Both the position numbers and the translations under genes were made by a program. Positions 10,696 to 17,733 of a stretch of 64,000 nt of DNA are shown in pieces. The notes beneath the pieces are model-generated. The model was given only the letters and a program-made list of their open reading frames with translations, did no database searches and was not told the DNA's origin. Source of the stretch: an uncultured virus (IMG/VR IMGVR_UViG_3300017786_003062) (Duplodnaviria; Heunggongvirae; Uroviricota; Caudoviricetes); the IMG/VR virus record IMGVR_UViG_3300017786_003062; one strand, 5' to 3'. Numbering within the stretch: the first letter of the stretch is position 1; every line of letters starts with the position of its first letter.

Positions 10696-10851
10696 TTAGC
10701 AGAAAATCAAATAAAATATAACCCACGAAAATAATGCTCCTTTAGCAAAGGCTGTCCACATCATTTGATAGTCGGATAGCTTTGTGCATTTTTGGAAATC
10801 ATGTATATGTTGTTCGTGCCAGTTAATTAGATTTTTTAAATACTGTTTCAT
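10696..10851 (-). CDS. Small membrane protein (51 aa)
   Basis: Not in ORF track. MKQYLKNLINWHEQHIHDFQKCTKLSDYQMMWTAFAKGALFSWVIFYLIFC; ATGA overlap with upstream gene; hydrophobic C-terminus. Confidence 0.6.
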   Translation of the reverse strand: MKQYLKNLINWHEQHIHDFQKCTKLSDYQMMWTAFAKGALFSWVIFYLIFC

Positions 10852-13007
10852 TTTGCAATTAACATCTGTCGTACTTGTTTCTGCACACCTGCTTTAGCAA
10901 TTCTTGTTGCTAAGTCTGGCAAATCAACTGTGCTACCTTGCGATGTAGTACTACCACCTACTAGGTCTTGTTTGATACTGTCTGTATTTGCACCAGACTG
11001 TTTAATTTTTTGTGCTAGTGCTTTAACATTGCTTTGTGTAGGTGTAGCTGTGTTGCTACCCGGTTTTTTAGGCGTTGTTGGTTTACTAGATGGTTCTTGT
11101 TTGCCTGGTTTAGTTGGAGCGCCTTTAGTATTTGTACTGTCTAAGTTCTTTGCACCTGTGTTTGTAGGCTCAGCTTGAGCAGGTTCTGCTGGTGCTTTAG
11201 TTGGTTTAGCTGGTGTTTGTGTGTCTTTTGTATTATCACTTGCTGTTGACGCTTGTGTTGCGTCTGCGGCACCATCTGTAGGTGTTTGTGCATCAGCTTT
11301 AGTTACTTCGTCTGGACTAATTGGTGCTTGTGTTGATCCTGCAATACTGCTTATCTGATCGTTAGTTAATCCTGCACCTGATAAAATATTTACAATGCTA
11401 CCGGAATCAGTTGGTTCACCCATCTTCTTCCAATCTTTATTAAGTTTGTTAGCAGTAACTTTGTTACCTACATCTTTAGCACCTTGCTTAACTGCACCAA
11501 CTGCTCCTTTGGCACCTTTAGCAACTGCTCCCGCACCTTGCTTAACTGCTCCTGCGGCTTTACTTGCAACTTTACCTGCACCACGTTTTAGTTTAGCACC
11601 TAGTGAATTAGGATTGTCTAATGGTAGTTCTTGTTGTGCTGGATCTGCTTCTTGTAAGTATTCGTTAAATGCATCTTCATAATCAATTGATTCTGCTTTA
11701 TCTCCTACTGCTCCAAAGTCTGAAAGTTTTTGACTCTTGTCAAAGTTTTTATCTACAGGTGTTGCATCACTTCCGCCTTTAAGATCAAGTTCCAGTTGTT
11801 TCATTTCTTCTGGTGCAACAGGTTTAACTTTGTGCATTTCTTTTTTAGCATCATCAACTGTTGCCGCCGCACCTTGTGCCGCCGCCGCTATTGCTCCGCC
11901 TGCATCGTTAACTGCCGCTATTGCTTTGTCGCCATCATCAAGTACAGCAATTACAGCATCTATCTGATCACTTGTTAACGCATCTTTTGGAATGTCTTTA
12001 ATAGCAAGTGCTAGTGTTGTAAGATCTGAGTTTGCTGTTTGTGTTGCAGAAAGAAATTCGTGCAGTTGTCCTGCCGCTTTATAATACTCTGGCGAAAATA
12101 CTTTTACTGACTGTGTTGCCGCTACTAAATCTTTATATTGTGCAAGTTCGTCTGGTTTAAAAACTGTGTGGTAGTTGTAAAAGAATCCGTTAATGTTACC
12201 TGATGATTTATGAAGCATTGCACCGTCAAGTACACCTTTATCAAATCCTGCATCAGCAATAGCACCGTCAACTGCCTTTTCAAAGTTTGCATCTTCAAAC
12301 CCTTTCATCATAGCATCTGCTTGAGCTTCATCTGCAAGTGCCATGTTGGCCATAATGTTATCTGACAAGTATCTAAAGCCTGCTCCAACAAGAGCACCAT
12401 ATGCCGCTGTTTTAACTGACTTACCAACTGCTGTTGAAAGTTTTTCACCTTGTAATAAATCTTTAGTACCACGTAGTACTAGACCTGCGGCCGCACCACC
12501 TAGTGGTCCTCCTGCAAATGCCGCAATGGTTGTTAGTATACCTACTGCTAGTGTTGCCTTACCTGGATTAGCTTTTGCCCAATCACTAATTTTATTAACG
12601 CCTGCAACAATTTTACTGTCGCTTGAACCAATTTTCTTTTTAAGTTCTTCAAACTTCGCATCAGCATTTTTAACTGGGCCTGCGTTTTGTGCTAGTCTGC
12701 CTAGCTCATTAATTTTTGCATCAACTTTCTTAGCTAGATCAACGGGTAACTTAGCCGCCGCTCCAACTTTACCTAGTGCAGTTTTATTATCTCCACTGGC
12801 CATTGCTGTTTCTTCAGCACCTTTGAAGATTGATTGTATTTGATCTGGTGTAAGTTCTGCTTCTGCTAGTATTGAATACTGCTCAACCAGTGGCCAAAGC
12901 TCTAATTCAAACCTTGTTAAATAATTTTGCTGTGCTTCATTAAGATCTTGCCAGCCTTCATTTAATATAGTTTGAGTCTTGCTTGTGAGTACTTCGTTGA
13001 GTTTCAT
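10848..13007 (-). CDS. Putative internal head / ejection protein
   Basis: 719 aa in a late-promoter operon; several (I/L)xE-(A/G) sites; Gly-zipper-like hydrophobic segment; P/T/K-rich C-terminal linker. Confidence 0.5.
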   Translation of the reverse strand: MKLNEVLTSKTQTILNEGWQDLNEAQQNYLTRFELELWPLVEQYSILAEAELTPDQIQSIFKGAEETAMASGDNKTALGKVGAAAKLPVDLAKKVDAKINELGRLAQNAGPVKNADAKFEELKKKIGSSDSKIVAGVNKISDWAKANPGKATLAVGILTTIAAFAGGPLGGAAAGLVLRGTKDLLQGEKLSTAVGKSVKTAAYGALVGAGFRYLSDNIMANMALADEAQADAMMKGFEDANFEKAVDGAIADAGFDKGVLDGAMLHKSSGNINGFFYNYHTVFKPDELAQYKDLVAATQSVKVFSPEYYKAAGQLHEFLSATQTANSDLTTLALAIKDIPKDALTSDQIDAVIAVLDDGDKAIAAVNDAGGAIAAAAQGAAATVDDAKKEMHKVKPVAPEEMKQLELDLKGGSDATPVDKNFDKSQKLSDFGAVGDKAESIDYEDAFNEYLQEADPAQQELPLDNPNSLGAKLKRGAGKVASKAAGAVKQGAGAVAKGAKGAVGAVKQGAKDVGNKVTANKLNKDWKKMGEPTDSGSIVNILSGAGLTNDQISSIAGSTQAPISPDEVTKADAQTPTDGAADATQASTASDNTKDTQTPAKPTKAPAEPAQAEPTNTGAKNLDSTNTKGAPTKPGKQEPSSKPTTPKKPGSNTATPTQSNVKALAQKIKQSGANTDSIKQDLVGGSTTSQGSTVDLPDLATRIAKAGVQKQVRQMLIAK

Positions 13008-13017
13008 TATTCAGTCC

Positions 13018-13533
13018 TTATAGTAACTTTGCTAATTCTGCTTTGTCTTGAGGACTTAGTGCGTCAATTTCTTTTTGTAAATCAGCCGGTATACCGCCTT
13101 GAGCACTTGCTGAACCAAACTTATCACCTAAACTAGCTGGACTACTTGCAGTTGCCGCTTGTCCTGCCGCACCTTTAAACGAATCTTGTGCAATTCCTTG
13201 TAACAAATCGTCTACTTGTTTAGGAGTCATTTGTCCTTGTACACCCTGCATACGCTTTGTTGGAAGTTTTTGTTTTTGTAAAAAGTCCATAACTTGATCT
13301 GCTGTTGGTTGTTTTGGATTACCACCAGTTTGACCCATATAGCCTCTATATTGTGTGAATATTTCTTTTGCTCTGGCGTTTTGGTCTACTTTACCCGTCA
13401 TGCCAGCCGCTGTGCCTTTAGCGCCAACGGCGCCTGCTACTTTTGCGCCAGCTTTTCTTGCTAGGTTACCTAGGGCACTTCCGCCAGGAGCCTCAGATAC
13501 TGCTGTTTCTGTAACTATTTGATTAATTTTCAT
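13018..13533 (-). CDS. Putative internal head protein
   Basis: N-terminus MKINQIVTETAVSE-A resembles that of the downstream gene (MKLNEVLT..ILNE-G); SD AAGGAG; perfect TATAAATA upstream. Confidence 0.5.
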   Translation of the reverse strand: MKINQIVTETAVSEAPGGSALGNLARKAGAKVAGAVGAKGTAAGMTGKVDQNARAKEIFTQYRGYMGQTGGNPKQPTADQVMDFLQKQKLPTKRMQGVQGQMTPKQVDDLLQGIAQDSFKGAAGQAATASSPASLGDKFGSASAQGGIPADLQKEIDALSPQDKAELAKLL

Positions 13534-13554
13534 AGTAAACTCCTTTGTATAATA

Positions 13555-13591
13555 TATTTATACTTAATTAGTCGCAAACTATCATTAAATA
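13555..13591. promoter_or_regulatory. Back-to-back late promoters (TATAAATA -, TTAAATA +)
   Basis: TATAAATA on minus strand at 13555-13562; TAAATA on plus strand at 13586-13591. Confidence 0.7.
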
Positions 13592-13597
13592 TTTGAT

Positions 13598-13780
13598 ATG
13601 GTTACACATTATAATATAATGTCTGACGGTAATGAAGTTGCTAGACTCAATAGTATGGAAGAAGCGACCCAAGCCGTAGAGATGTTCCGTATTCAGTCCC
13701 CACACAGTGATTTCGAAATAGAGATAGTCGAAATTAGTAGTGTCAAACCTGGATTTGGACGTGATCCTGATTTACATTAG
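13598..13780 (+). CDS. Hypothetical protein (60 aa)
   Basis: ORF with protein-like composition, 6 nt downstream of TAAATA. Confidence 0.6.
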   Translation: MVTHYNIMSDGNEVARLNSMEEATQAVEMFRIQSPHSDFEIEIVEISSVKPGFGRDPDLH

Positions 13781-13846
13781 AGTCACGATCTGAATTGTTC
13801 CAAGTGTTTGTGTGGATTCGTTGTTCGATAGTTGTGAATTGTTTAG

Positions 13847-13946
13847 AACAAGTACTTCGTACTTGTTGTTTTTCGCTGTCGCTCAAACACTTATATCTTT
13901 TAATGTTATAAAGGAATAATGTATGAATAATAAGTGCGAAGCACTT
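13847..13946. repeat. Two perfect inverted repeats with C-GAA-G triloops in opposite orientations
   Basis: AACAAGTAC-TTC-GTACTTGTT (13847-13867) and AAGTGC-GAA-GCACTT (13932-13946). Confidence 0.8.
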
Positions 13947-14300
13947 TAGCATTATCTAGATAGTTGAGCCACAATTCGCCCGTTGCCGGACGAATTAAAA
14001 AAAATGACTACTCCTACATTATCTGAGTGAGCATCGCCACAATCTATTAAAGAAGATTGTAATATAATTACACGGAGGCGGCGTACCGCATACCCCCTAC
14101 TTCAGCATTCGCATAATACGCGGAAAGCAGTTAATCCCTAATAGTCGAAATCACTTACTCTGTGGTTGCTTTTTCTCAGAGCCACAATCTTTTATACCTA
14201 AGTTAGTATTGTCCTTGCAACACACTAGATCCACCGGTGGATTTCCCACAAGTTCATAGCGAGTCGAGCTACCTCGACCAAACAATGTTGCTATGTTTGC
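13930..14300 (-). ncRNA. Candidate large structured non-coding RNA
   Basis: About 10 predicted helices, GCAA and UACG tetraloops, G-U pairs only on the minus strand, no credible ORF; starts at the GIY-YIG stop codon. Confidence 0.7.
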
Positions 14301-14723
14301 CTATAATTTACGTAATTCTTCTTTTAGAATTTTAGAACCGCCAACCCGTACATTAATAATTCCGTTATAATACTCGTCTGTTTCTAGTACTCTACGGTCA
14401 AACTGTTCTTTAGCCTCTAAGTAACTTGCTAAGCCTCTGCTTTTACAGTAATGTAATATTTCTCTGGTGAATTTATCAGTGCCTAATTCTTCAACGTCTC
14501 TTAATAAGTTATCACTGGAGCCCCAATAGTCTCTCCAATCTGATTCTTTAGTTCCGCGTCTTTTGTTTTTTCTGCCTTTGAGTGGTGGCTTAGTTGTCTT
14601 AAATTTAGCTAGTTTTTTGCCTACGTACTTGCGATTATCAGTGATGTTAGTGATTAGATAAACAAATGCTTCGCAATCTTCCGGAAGTTCGTCTATTTTC
14701 TTACCTTTATAAGTCCACTGCAT
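14301..14723 (-). CDS. Stand-alone GIY-YIG family endonuclease
   Basis: AFVYLITN...RKYVGKK (GIY-YIG equivalent), YWGSS, REIL, conserved E (YLEAKEQ) and YYN. Confidence 0.8.
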   Translation of the reverse strand: MQWTYKGKKIDELPEDCEAFVYLITNITDNRKYVGKKLAKFKTTKPPLKGRKNKRRGTKESDWRDYWGSSDNLLRDVEELGTDKFTREILHYCKSRGLASYLEAKEQFDRRVLETDEYYNGIINVRVGGSKILKEELRKL

Positions 14724-14742
14724 GAACTTACTTACATTAAGC

Positions 14743-14955
14743 CTATGTGTCTTGCTCTTGATTCTGGTTCTTCTTGTTAGATGTGAAGTCGTCCATGATT
14801 TCTACTCTGCGTGTAGAACACAAACGACGAATTTCGCTTAACCACCTACGTGCTTCACGTTTAGTACGTTCGCTTTTGCGAATTTCAAACGCTTCATTGG
14901 CTTTATAGTATTGCATATAAGCCTTTGTAAGTAGATCATGCGTATCGTCTGTCAT
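14743..14955 (-). CDS. Hypothetical protein (70 aa)
   Basis: TAATG-coupled to gp46; basic, predicted helical. Confidence 0.7.
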   Translation of the reverse strand: MTDDTHDLLTKAYMQYYKANEAFEIRKSERTKREARRWLSEIRRLCSTRRVEIMDDFTSNKKNQNQEQDT

Positions 14956-16724
14956 TATTGTATTTCTATATCGTTATCATAACTAGTAAAGCCGTTTTCT
15001 TTTATTACTTTAAGTACATTTGTAACTCTACCCATTAGTTCGTCTTTGTGTGAAATTAGATATACGTTCTTACCACGTTCTCTAGCCATTTTCTTAAGAA
15101 TACTAATAGAACTTTCAACACCTGCTGTGTCCATACCACTATCAATAAGCTCATCAATGAATAGTAAGTTAATATTTTGATATAAACTTTCCCATACATC
15201 ACGGAAACTCCAACTCATACCAAGTATAAGTCTATTACGTTCACCTCTACTCAAGTTATCAAAGTCTAAGTCCTGTCCTAGTTGTTGTATTTCAACTGTT
15301 AGGTCATTTTTAAACACTACAGTATGTGGTAAACCTATTTTGTCTAAGTAATATGTAAGTCTGTTGTTTAAGTATGCTAAGTTTTGTTCAATAATCTTCT
15401 TACGAATAAAACTATCTTTGTTTGTTAGCAACTTATACAAAAAGTCTTGATGTTCTTTAGTACTAGTCAGTTCATTTACTGTTTCCCAGTTAAGTTCTTG
15501 AATAGCAGTTTCTTTTAAATCGTCAATTTGTTCTTGGTAAGGATCAACTTCATCCTTCTTTGCCTGTAAAGCAATCTTTAAGTTCTCAACATTGTGTTGA
15601 TGCTCATATGCTTCTTTAGCATTTTCATAAAATGTGTTAGGCTTACTTTCAATGTCGCCTAAGTCTTCAATCTTTTTAATTACCTTATCAAACTTACTAG
15701 CAATTTCAATTAGGTATGTGTGTGCATCACCGTAATCAGTTTGTAGCTTTTCTTTAAGTTCTTCTAACTTTTCATCGTGTAAGTCTTGTCCACAAGCATA
15801 ACACTTTGCATGTTCTAAGTCATCTAATTCTTTACCAGACTTTTTCATGTTCTTGTCAGCTTGTTCTAATGCACGTTCAACTGTTGATCTTTCTTTGATC
15901 AAGTTATTATGCTTATTTGTTTTGTCTGCCCACGAACTTAGTAACTCGTGTGCTTCTAGTTCAGCGTCAATGTCTAGTTTTTCTAAGTCTTTAATTGCTT
16001 TGTCAAGTTTATCACAGTCTTGTTTGTTTTGAGAGATCCATGCTTTACGTCTTGTATGTAACCTATCAATATTTTCTGTAATTTTTTCATTACTTGCTGT
16101 TACTGCCGTAAGTCTAGCAGTTTCATCTGTGAGTTGGTCTTTAACAATCTTAGTTTGTTCTCTAAGTTTGTCAGCTTTCTCACTTAATATAGTAATACCT
16201 AACAGTTGCTCAATGATTGCACGTTGATCGTTGCTCTTTAATGACAAAAACGGCTCTGTATATGTGTTAAGTGCAAGAATATGCTTAAACATATCATGAC
16301 TCATACCAAGAAGCGTGTTGATATCCTCTTGTGTCTTACGACTATCGCCTTGACTTTCGTCTGTAATCTCTTGATCAGTACCATCAATGCTAAATTTTAA
16401 CAAATTAGGTTTACGTCCACGCTCAATATGATAATTTCTACCATCTTTTTCAAACGTGAGGGTTACTAACATTGCTTTGTTATTAGTTTTGTTAACTAAA
16501 TTGTCTTTGCGAATGTTAGTTAGTGCTTGGCCGTACAGGGCGTAGGATAATGCGTTAATTATCGTAGTTTTACCTGTACCGTTACGGGAACCTGAATCGT
16601 CACCTCCTTGATCTAAGTTTTCACCAAGCACTAACGTTAGTTGTTCTCTATCGAAATCAACTCCTTGTGTAGCATTACCTACACTCATAAAATTCTTAAC
16701 TGTTAATTCTTTAATTTTAATCAT
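14955..16724 (-). CDS. gp46: Recombination endonuclease ATPase subunit (Rad50/SbcC-like)
   Basis: Walker A RNGTGKTT, zinc hook CYAC in coiled coil, signature LSRGE, Walker B LLFIDE, H-loop ISH. Confidence 0.95.
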   Translation of the reverse strand: MIKIKELTVKNFMSVGNATQGVDFDREQLTLVLGENLDQGGDDSGSRNGTGKTTIINALSYALYGQALTNIRKDNLVNKTNNKAMLVTLTFEKDGRNYHIERGRKPNLLKFSIDGTDQEITDESQGDSRKTQEDINTLLGMSHDMFKHILALNTYTEPFLSLKSNDQRAIIEQLLGITILSEKADKLREQTKIVKDQLTDETARLTAVTASNEKITENIDRLHTRRKAWISQNKQDCDKLDKAIKDLEKLDIDAELEAHELLSSWADKTNKHNNLIKERSTVERALEQADKNMKKSGKELDDLEHAKCYACGQDLHDEKLEELKEKLQTDYGDAHTYLIEIASKFDKVIKKIEDLGDIESKPNTFYENAKEAYEHQHNVENLKIALQAKKDEVDPYQEQIDDLKETAIQELNWETVNELTSTKEHQDFLYKLLTNKDSFIRKKIIEQNLAYLNNRLTYYLDKIGLPHTVVFKNDLTVEIQQLGQDLDFDNLSRGERNRLILGMSWSFRDVWESLYQNINLLFIDELIDSGMDTAGVESSISILKKMARERGKNVYLISHKDELMGRVTNVLKVIKENGFTSYDNDIEIQ

Positions 16725-17733
16725 CTCTACCTAGATCCCTATATATGTCTAACAGTTTTTTCCTATCAAAGTTGTCTGAATCGATTGCTTCAATCTCTTT
16801 AGCTACAATTTCATCAACACTTTCAAACTGTGCAATATCAATCTCACTATTAATCTCGTCATCTTTGGTACTAGGAATTAATGTAATTTCTCTACATTCA
16901 TATTCTTTAATAAATGTTTCTTTAATAAAACTTGCTTCTTCGTAACTAATAGGTAAGTCTAGTGTAACTCTCAAATACATCTTAGGTTTAATAAGTGTAT
17001 CTTTCTCATCTAGTAGTTGACTAAGTTTAACTGTGCGATACTTAGGACAGTTCCACCAGTTAATGTACTGTGGTTCCCCACCGTGTTCTAAAATCATCAT
17101 ACCACGTTCGTCATCCCATGCATCTGCATAGTTGTGTGGTAGTGCATTACCAATATAATGTACAGGACCTTTTACTTGTCTTTTGTGAAAGTGTCCACTA
17201 AACACATATTCTTGATTTTTAAAATGTTCTGCTTTTAGTTCTCCGTGATCTGGCATCTGCACCATAGCATTCATATAGAAGCTAGGTAGTTCAAAGTGTC
17301 CAAACACGTATTTGCTTTTTAATTTACTAATCTTTTTCCATTCATCACCAACTAGCCATGGGACTAGTGTACTATCACCAATGGTCATTATTTCATTAAC
17401 CATTGTAATGCCTTCAATGTGCTTACCAAAAGCAACTGAATTCAAATCTCTTTTATCTTTATAATATAAATCATGGTTGCCAGGAAAGAAATAAAACTTT
17501 TCAAATGCCTTACCAAGTTTTTCCAATGCTCGAAGCGTAGCATCAAGTGTAGTGATGTTCAAACTGTTTCTATTATGATGCCAGTCGCCCATAAAGATAC
17601 CAGTCTCACAGCCGTTAGCTTGAGCTTGTTCAATATACCAATCTACGAATTCTTCGCAGTCGTCATTGTGTGTTTTAGAATTGGACTTGAGTCCAAAGTG
17701 TATGTCTGTAAAGACAGCCGCCTTTTTAAACAA
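16717..17733 (-). CDS. gp47: Recombination endonuclease nuclease subunit (Mre11/SbcD-like), TTG start
   Basis: Phosphoesterase motifs TDIHFG, GDWHH, GNHD, GHF, SGHFH; SD GAGG. Confidence 0.95.
   Translation of the reverse strand: MFKKAAVFTDIHFGLKSNSKTHNDDCEEFVDWYIEQAQANGCETGIFMGDWHHNRNSLNITTLDATLRALEKLGKAFEKFYFFPGNHDLYYKDKRDLNSVAFGKHIEGITMVNEIMTIGDSTLVPWLVGDEWKKISKLKSKYVFGHFELPSFYMNAMVQMPDHGELKAEHFKNQEYVFSGHFHKRQVKGPVHYIGNALPHNYADAWDDERGMMILEHGGEPQYINWWNCPKYRTVKLSQLLDEKDTLIKPKMYLRVTLDLPISYEEASFIKETFIKEYECREITLIPSTKDDEINSEIDIAQFESVDEIVAKEIEAIDSDNFDRKKLLDIYRDLGRDD

Follow-up and report, generated by a model that had tools for sequence, protein, structure and literature searches.

Group I introns may carry a homing endonuclease gene, the T4 td intron with I-TevI being a familiar example; T4 segB is a free-standing GIY-YIG homing endonuclease gene within a tRNA gene cluster, and T4 endonuclease II (DenA) is a GIY-YIG enzyme of 136 amino acids (aa) for which we know of no associated RNA. 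Co-occurrence with a nuclease gene is what led to discovery of the functions of HEARO/omegaRNA and of reRNA, and large, multiply pseudoknotted RNAs are rare, past cases being ribozymes, guide scaffolds (HEARO, later omegaRNA) and self-assembling cages. HEARO/omegaRNA with IscB and reRNA (RAGATH-18 type) with TnpB are nuclease-adjacent RNA systems (PMC11061315), and GOLLD and ROOL are large ornate RNAs of phages and prophages (10.1101/2024.12.08.627333). Here we describe a locus in a stretch of 64,000 nucleotides (nt) from an uncultured member of the Caudoviricetes (IMG/VR record IMGVR_UViG_3300017786_003062; this whole stretch is called the window below), in which a gene for a small SegE-type GIY-YIG endonuclease is followed on the same strand by a structured RNA of about 375 nt. 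The RNA belongs to a previously undescribed family of large, multiply pseudoknotted phage noncoding RNAs. Its gene and that of a small stand-alone endonuclease form a stable two-gene cassette, of which the RNA is the constant part and the nuclease (a SegE-type GIY-YIG protein on either side of it, or a PDDEXK_15 protein) the exchangeable part. The reading we prefer, to which we give a probability of about 0.4, is that the RNA is autonomous and that its gene travels with an exchangeable homing-type nuclease.

The RNA and the nuclease gene overlap by one codon, as the UAG stop of the gene (14303-14301) opens the UAGGC leader that is conserved in the RNA; position n of the RNA is window coordinate 14304-n (Table 1). 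At the other end, the stem of the likely terminator covaries among relatives (GUGC/GCAC, UUGC/GCAA, ACGC/GCGU and CUGC/GCAG). A protein-coding role for the region is ruled out: across 39 homologues the longest run without a stop codon is 49 aa in the median and shifts from frame to frame, no three-base periodicity of substitution was found (0.19/0.17/0.18), and the 44-aa and 69-aa open reading frames (ORFs) of the window are not conserved. The RNA has minus polarity, since, read from the plus strand, many conserved G-U pairs would turn into A-C mismatches (columns 51/65, 52/64, 86/116, and 107/126 of the middle-domain alignment; further conserved G-U pairs are at columns 15/32 and 97/105 of the 5′-domain alignment). 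An earlier note on this DNA, made from its sequence by eye, had placed a noncoding RNA here, and the profile, ORF, periodicity, and terminator data agree with its coordinates, strand, and extent; its argument for minus polarity from G-U pairs is likewise upheld by the columns conserved in homologues.

The structured RNA is real, and the comparative evidence for it is decisive; the window sequence alone folds modestly better than chance (minus strand, −110.7 kcal/mol, z −2.43, with 2 of 100 shuffles equally good; plus strand, z −1.36). RNAalifold, given 14 sequences, finds 73 pairs, 31 of them with compensatory changes. In the 5′ domain 15 of 25 pairs are changed on both sides with 98.7% of the cells paired, a value reached by none of 500 shuffles, and controls with the structure slid along the alignment give 0-4 such pairs. 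The middle domain was tested with a hand-written structure that includes three pseudoknots; 31 of its 49 pairs are changed on both sides and 92.8% of the cells are paired (a level attained by none of 500 shuffles; 3-12 such pairs in slid controls). Each of the three pseudoknot helices is 100% paired across the compared sequences, and the middle domain also holds long invariant single strands. The compensatory changes that the earlier note had proposed to look for are thus present in both domains. Of the eight helices it drew, four are retained (GUCGAG-GUAG-CUCGAC, UGUGG/CCACA, GGGG/CUCC, and AAUUCGUCCG/CGGGCGAAUU), although the GGGG/CUCC pairing turns out to be a pseudoknot in the conserved structure; the other four (CAUAGC/GCUAUG, the 14-nt palindrome, UAGUGUGUU/GACAAUACUA together with CGCGU/AUGCG, and ACAAUCU/AGAUUGU) are not conserved, and other conserved pairings, partly long-range, stand in their place.

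The partner GIY-YIG gene has at least 599 relatives in IMG/VR, 80 of which were compared. The RNA lies directly 3′ of the gene on the same strand in 53 of these 80 (nhmmer), and R2, a covariance model of the 3′ domain, matches 55; most of the others are cut by contig ends or have more divergent versions of the RNA. Another model, R1, misses divergent middle domains and matches 23 of 82 sources; its match in L052 (E-value 0.013, upstream of the gene) was taken as noise. Several divergent groups of the RNA can be told apart, which share the 3′ domain with its repeat modules and the core motifs and differ in the middle and partly in the 5′ domain, with sizes of ∼370-450 nt. The RNA recurs in hundreds of ocean virus contigs, two exact-pattern scans giving at least 120 loci each. 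Among 185,579 species genomes the group-2 pattern occurs in two stretches, both in one metagenome-assembled genome, and by these comparisons the RNA is found almost exclusively in viral contigs. The two stretches (L332 and L333; PBPT01000016.1 and PBPT01000082.1) are 335 and 153 kb long and come from a Neomarinimicrobiota assembly, with which they may have been binned as phage contigs.

No known family accommodates this RNA, which the earlier note could not assign by eye: a search of Rfam 15 with the window and 20 homologous loci returned no hit at gathering thresholds and only unrelated noise at E-values up to 10, and ARAGORN found no tRNA or tmRNA in the window. No description was found in the literature, with the reservation that the viral candidate-RNA catalogue of PMC10690425 was covered in part and an unnamed entry in it may overlap; a supplementary table of it lists candidate RNAs upstream of GIY-YIG genes. 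Like GOLLD and ROOL, the RNA is a large phage RNA supported by covariation, with its own transcription in some genomes. Unlike them, it has no match in Rfam (which holds both), is smaller (∼370-450 nt), is tightly linked to a nuclease gene, and carries a duplicated motif whose copies covary in parallel.

This duplicated motif is the hallmark of the 3′ domain, in which two ∼25-nt modules lie 55-64 nt apart, module 1 being followed by the G+C-rich hairpin H11 and module 2 by the terminator hairpin. Among 14 sequences, one pair of H11 is changed on both sides and two pairs go from C-G to U-G; other groups of the RNA have a different hairpin in its place. Each module contains a variable 6-nt core, and the two cores of a given RNA are the same in 31 of 31 representatives, which include five core types, and in 66 of 66 distinct group-2 RNAs; L055, read by eye, carries a further variant that is changed in both copies. 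The strongest covarying partner of each variable core position is the equivalent position of the other module, and no complementary partner lies nearby, so the covariation is parallel rather than complementary and intramolecular pairing offers no explanation for it. A candidate pairing of AUCU (13961-13958) with AGAU (14190-14187) joins two invariant segments. A cis partner for the repeated motif was sought and rejected, as no exact 6-nt complement is present between −700 and +900 nt in 46 loci, apart from five scattered singletons. A trans partner within the window fared no better: the repeat-core 8-mer CATTATCT/AGATAATG is enriched (9 occurrences against 2.95 expected; none of 100 shuffles reaches 9), but no obvious common context was found for the seven extra sites (19220, 20111, 29139, 32649, 46364, 50010, and 50780). 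A miniature CRISPR array of the form repeat-hairpin-repeat can be dismissed by reasoning, because its “spacer” would be a conserved, covarying hairpin.

Two identical direct repeats that evolve in concert recall iterons, and the locus might be a replication-origin module, in which the RNA would be a structured primer or R-loop transcript bearing iteron-like repeats, and the product of the adjacent nuclease gene would process or nick it. The A+T-rich DNA past the terminator would suit an origin, as would the neighboring SbcCD-type recombination nuclease genes of the window phage and the occurrence of the cassette in unrelated phages, which is how origin-plus-initiator modules are distributed. 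A DNA origin, however, needs no compensatory changes that preserve pseudoknots in RNA, the repeats number only two, their core does not differ between GIY-YIG and PDDEXK_15 partners, and no initiator gene is evident. We consider such an origin quite improbable.

The coupling of the RNA to nuclease genes was assessed with scans begun from the RNA sequence, not from the protein; the scan sets share some contigs, so their counts are not fully independent. Among the 80 flanked loci listed from a scan with a group-1 15-mer, 56 carry the RNA. A GIY-YIG gene lies upstream on the same strand in 53 of these, at a gap of −6 to 79 nt, and the other three are cut by contig ends, which leaves 53 of 53 testable loci with the gene. 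The 24 flanked loci without the RNA are also without the GIY-YIG gene and are chance matches. A group-2 scan listed 68 loci with at least 950 nt upstream, of which 63 have a GIY-YIG gene upstream, two have one downstream, and two have a PDDEXK_15 gene upstream; the last ends 3 nt after the pattern, so a nuclease gene is adjacent in 67 of 68. The tie between a structured RNA gene and a small nuclease gene that the earlier note proposed is thus upheld.

Replacement of the GIY-YIG gene is seen in L291 and L254, where a PDDEXK_15 gene (PF24608; E-values 1.6e-27 and 1.1e-25) occupies its position and also ends at the leader of the RNA, there UA(A)GGC. L216 is listed as well for such a replacement. 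The association with PDDEXK_15 is old and spans two lineages: the nuclease genes of L291 and L254 share 71% identity, and divergence is also seen between their RNAs. An intron that splits the nuclease gene is ruled out, as PDDEXK_15 spans its profile fully.

The two loci where the GIY-YIG gene is downstream are from complete ∼31-kb phages bearing terminal direct repeats (L213 and L252; records G005 and G006), which have an unrelated backbone and no SbcC-like gene. In them a single copy of the RNA lies after a terminator-like hairpin and before a gene for a 141-aa GIY-YIG protein that is 49% identical to that of the window; the L213 homologue scores 113.3 bits against the SegE-type GIY-YIG profile. 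The related contig L242 has a promoter-like site (judged by eye) where the 31-kb phages have the terminator-like hairpin.

In seawater metatranscriptomes, three runs from three studies yield contigs that cross the junction of the ORF and the RNA in the window (14014-14363, 14183-14713, and 14011-14735), as the earlier note had suggested looking for; being assembled contigs, they give neither transcript ends nor levels, and carry-over of DNA is possible. They fit at least partial co-transcription of the GIY-YIG ORF and the RNA. Contigs of these runs stop at 14011, 14014, and 14029, near module 1, and none covers 13544-13909 or 14825-15100, but the runs were picked for containing the window stretch and such gaps and stops are by themselves no evidence; the stops are at most a weak hint of a 3′ end, or reflect a fall-off in coverage. 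A single RNA-library contig of a relative covers module 1 through module 2. In window-type RNAs only, module 1 lies inside a hairpin (GAUGCUC..GAGUAGUC) that is followed by eight U residues (13996-14035, minus strand) and looks from its sequence like an internal terminator.

The tight spacing to the stop codon, and the co-transcription that the RNA-library contigs suggest, would fit a cis-acting untranslated region through which the nuclease mRNA is stabilized or its translation controlled. Against this, the order of the two is not constant: in the large phages the nuclease gene comes first and the RNA after it, and in the 31-kb phages the RNA comes first, with a hairpin between them. The RNA also serves nuclease genes of two unrelated kinds, the same nuclease gene does without it elsewhere, and ∼370 nt with three pseudoknots goes far beyond known untranslated stabilizers. 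This role is very improbable.

The locus shares with group I introns and their homing endonuclease genes a pseudoknotted RNA of several hundred nt linked to a small endonuclease gene, and the interchange of GIY-YIG and PD-(D/E)XK nucleases that are also free-standing. It could accordingly be imagined that the RNA is a new self-splicing or self-cleaving ribozyme, an intron-like mobile element with a homing endonuclease gene at its edge and with the twin motifs as reaction sites. Its complexity (three covarying pseudoknots and long invariant single strands), the group I-like pattern of interchangeable and free-living nuclease families, and the identical sequences at two sites ∼58 nt apart, which would fit paired processing sites, all favor this idea. 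However, neither the group I and group II intron models nor the small-ribozyme models of Rfam 15 match at E-values up to 10. No host gene is interrupted, the flanks do not join into an ORF, there are no exons, the PDDEXK_15 and GIY-YIG ORFs flanking the RNA are complete, and the 69-aa ORF downstream is not conserved. In the window the nuclease ORF also lies outside the RNA, not in a loop of it, and the RNA is never seen without a nuclease gene. RNA-library contigs show no joints (a weak test, as only contigs were compared), and the relative's contig mentioned above is continuous from one module to the other. A ribozyme of this kind seems improbable.

The 140-aa protein encoded upstream of the RNA matches PF19835 (SegE_GIY-YIG) with 117.7 bits (cut-off 25; E-value 4.7e-34), its residues 3-123 aligning to positions 1-123 of the 123-position profile, and is assigned to PHROG 447. 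Among 13 homologues, distant ones included, Y22, Y33 and G35 (Y33-x-G35), and E103 are invariant and R87, E88, and N120 are at least 90% conserved; by analogy we take these seven residues to have catalytic roles. A confident AlphaFold2 model of the protein (predicted local distance difference test score 83) gives the I-TevI catalytic domain (1ln0_B) as its best meaningful Foldseek match, a weak one (E-value 0.39; template modeling score 0.62 on the target) in a search with all E-values above 0.3, and a sequence search of the PDB found no match. All 80 relatives are 137-140 aa long. The C-terminal DNA-binding region of Seg-type homing endonucleases is not present, since the protein stops at residue 140 with noncoding sequence beyond. 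This agrees with the description of the protein in the earlier note as a catalytic domain only; the “basic insert” noted there is no insert but a conserved feature of the family, modeled as a β-hairpin. Decay of the C-terminal half of a longer Seg gene is ruled out by the uniform length of the relatives and by the downstream sequence, which evolves as RNA helices.

DenA is likewise a catalytic-domain-only GIY-YIG nuclease of about 140 aa from a T4-type phage, but Pfam places the window protein in SegE_GIY-YIG. With T4 segB the locus has in common a Seg-type GIY-YIG gene of a T4-type phage that adjoins conserved genes for structured RNAs, and the family member in S-RIM8, like segB, lies near a tRNA gene. 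It differs from segB in that the protein is without the C-terminal DNA-binding half of Seg proteins, occupancy is ∼100% rather than sporadic, and the RNA is no tRNA. Small GIY-YIG proteins of PHROG 447 are annotated as “NAD synthetase” in cyanophages, Felix O1-like phages, and others (e.g., NC_020486.1, NC_005282.1, and NC_041929.1); to judge from Pfam, this label looks like a propagated misannotation.

The nuclease gene also exists without the RNA. The complete genome of phage Melnitz has a 78%-identical GIY-YIG gene beside ribonucleotide reductase genes, and neither BLAST nor model R2 (best E-value 0.93) found the RNA in that genome. At least seven other loci go straight from the GIY-YIG gene into coding sequence; R2 has no match on the contigs of five of these, which are 3-22% complete, and this negative holds for the contigs only. 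GIY-YIG proteins at 75-80% identity are thus found in genomes or loci without the RNA. Distant family members, often with the “NAD synthetase” label, are without any such RNA: in cyanophage S-RIM8 the member is followed 200 nt downstream by a tRNA gene, with a ribonucleotide reductase gene not far away, and the Felix O1 member is beside an HNH endonuclease gene with nrdA downstream, positions that we regard as classic homing-endonuclease sites. As to the independent occurrence that the earlier note had named as a test of its model, the nuclease without the RNA was therefore found and the RNA without the nuclease was not.

The gene coupling is thus supported, and a specific RNA-guided nuclease complex is not. 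The RNA needs a nuclease neighbor while the nuclease exists without the RNA and its fold can be swapped, which argues against a co-evolved, specific RNA-guided complex. The ribonucleoprotein proposed in the earlier note, in which the RNA binds or targets the nuclease, loses support for these reasons and because no guide-like segment is found: beyond the duplicated 6-nt core no variable stretch was detected, the 3′ end consisting of a conserved module and the terminator, and the 5′ leader being a short UAGGC-type stretch.

The relation between the RNA and the nuclease therefore resembles, by analogy, that of a structured-RNA gene and a homing-type endonuclease. In the preferred reading of an autonomous RNA with a traveling nuclease, the nuclease would cut DNA alone, with no RNA guide, and would keep itself and the adjoining RNA gene in phage populations through break-induced copying. 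The RNA would work independently as a folded molecule, whose pseudoknotted core would present two identical single-stranded motifs, each followed by a hairpin. Most simply viewed, the twin motifs may be two binding sites for one co-evolving partner, possibly a dimeric protein or else a nucleic acid from another locus of the phage.

Several observations weigh against this reading. Selfish homing genes are usually patchy, so full occupancy speaks against homing; no nuclease-free RNA locus was found among ∼120 testable loci listed, and instead of the patchy presence and absence expected of a Seg-type homing endonuclease, it is the type of nuclease that differs by lineage. The antiquity of the PDDEXK_15 link seems to reflect a durable functional need for a nuclease more than the turnover of a parasite. 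The GIY-YIG protein is better conserved (75-83%) than the neighboring SbcC/Rad50-like protein (50-80%) in the same loci, and it has no DNA-binding tail and no known cleavage site. Finally, the role the reading gives to the RNA is generic, and no partner for its repeated motif was found.

Many of the same facts favor a working pair, in which the RNA would serve to recruit, aim, or control a small endonuclease of generic type. The RNA could pair with DNA, forming an R-loop or branched structure that is cut by a structure-specific GIY-YIG or PD-(D/E)XK enzyme (both folds include structure-specific enzymes), or it could be a scaffold or guide like HEARO/omegaRNA for IscB or reRNA for TnpB. At the listed testable loci the RNA is never seen without a neighboring nuclease gene, the coupling persists across two phage backbones that are unrelated and have the two genes in opposite order, and the nonorthologous replacement by PDDEXK_15 is old and stable. 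The ORF stop lies inside the conserved RNA leader, RNA-library contigs cross the junction, and the nuclease is more conserved than neighboring core genes. As in the HEARO/omegaRNA and TnpB reRNA systems, a conserved structured RNA adjoins a nuclease gene, and as with the reRNA of TnpB the RNA begins at the 3′ end of the ORF. Unlike IscB and TnpB, however, the window nuclease has a GIY-YIG (elsewhere PDDEXK) and not a RuvC/HNH fold and is only 140 aa long; and unlike in those systems the nuclease occurs at 75-80% identity in genomes or loci without the RNA, no transposon end is present, and no match to HEARO or omegaRNA-type Rfam families is obtained. There is no programmable, locus-specific guide, the only variable exposed element being the 6-nt core (five variants in 31 sequences), and one specific RNA interface common to two unrelated folds is unlikely. 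On balance we regard a working pair as doubtful, and keep it in consideration for three reasons: occupancy is complete, the nuclease is highly conserved, and its replacement by PDDEXK is old.

It is also rather unlikely, taking two bolder ideas together, that the RNA is either the nucleic-acid-recognizing half of an RNA-dependent DNA cutter, bringing an exchangeable mini-endonuclease to its substrate, or a new ribozyme-class core of a mobile cassette. If either were true, a nuclease-RNA partnership of an unprecedented kind would exist in marine phages that are abundant and apparently very large. Whatever its role, the RNA stands for a class of RNA and a genetic partnership that are both new, with two features for which there is no ready explanation: the near-obligatory, exchangeable mini-nuclease neighbor and the modules that change in parallel.

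Table 1. Positions of the RNA elements and neighboring genes in the window, and of the PDDEXK_15 genes in two related loci
Feature	Position	Strand	Remarks
Whole structured RNA, ∼375 nt	13929-14303	minus	conservation 3′ of the GIY-YIG gene; no conserved ORF
5′ domain	14194-14293	minus	25 pairs, covariation
H1	14291-14287 with 14221-14217	minus	encloses H2, H3, and H4
H2 hairpin	14279-14262	minus	inside H1
H3	14261-14258 with 14226-14223	minus	inside H1
H4 variable hairpin	14253-14233	minus	with H3
H5 hairpin	14209-14194	minus	after H1
Middle domain	14042-14193	minus	49 pairs, covariation
H6	14186-14182 with 14165-14161	minus	
H7	14160-14124	minus	
H8	14121-14116 with 14086-14081	minus	
H9	14072-14058	minus	
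Pseudoknot 1, GGGGG/CCUCC	14097-14093 with 14078-14074	minus	2 doubly changed pairs
Pseudoknot 2, GAAG/CUUC	14103-14100 with 14055-14052	minus	3 doubly changed pairs
Pseudoknot 3, H7 loop CUAUUA with UAAUAG	14144-14139 with 14049-14044	minus	5 doubly changed pairs
Direct-repeat module 1, UUGUGGCG..ACUCA-GAUAAU-G	14017-14041	minus	core motif 14028-14017
H11, G+C-rich hairpin between modules	13973-13996	minus	9 pairs
Direct-repeat module 2, UUGUGGCUCAACUAUCUA-GAUAAU-G	13950-13974	minus	core motif 13961-13950
UUCG-loop hairpin and U-run	13929-13946	minus	likely intrinsic terminator, RNA 3′ end; hairpin and U-run at 13946-13932 in terminator scan
Metallophosphatase, SbcD/Mre11-like	16717-17733	minus	
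SbcC/Rad50-like ATPase	14955-16724	minus	
70-aa ORF	14743-14955	minus	
140-aa SegE-type GIY-YIG endonuclease gene	14301-14723	minus	Pfam PF19835
171-aa gene past the gap	13018-13533	minus	
719-aa gene past the gap	10848-13007	minus	low-complexity, Ala/Gly/Pro/Thr-rich
PDDEXK_15 gene	L291 608-1123	plus	between 70-aa ORF and RNA
PDDEXK_15 gene	L254 1517-2071	minus	between 70-aa ORF and RNA

Contigs near-identical or related to the window are 176-268 kb long and are rated 49-75% complete, so the phage genome is probably about 350 kb in size. Its SbcC-like protein is 48% identical to those of its closest cultured relatives, the PA5oct-type phages. After the GIY-YIG gene the minus strand has no credible gene until 13533, where the 171-aa gene begins; neither it nor the 719-aa gene has a match in Pfam or PHROG. 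This gene pair is preceded by a TATAAATA motif (∼13556-13563), which we take to resemble a T4-type late promoter.

A+T-rich DNA follows the terminator of the RNA. The apparently empty gap is partly filled by a convergent plus-strand ORF with its signals: a 60-aa ORF (13598-13780, ending VKPGFGRDPDLH) points toward the RNA, a near-consensus σ70-like site (11 of 12 matches; 13593-13620) extends over the beginning of this ORF, and positions 13847-13867 hold a terminator-like hairpin on the plus strand. The C-terminal coding block of this ORF is kept in group-2 loci L010, L023, L030, L047, and L069. Past the RNA terminator, at ∼13845-13895 on the minus strand, a block GUGUUUGAGCGAYAGCGAAAAC followed by a covarying hairpin is kept in RNA groups 1 and 2 and in the PDDEXK_15 loci, and may be part of the RNA locus or of the convergent small gene.

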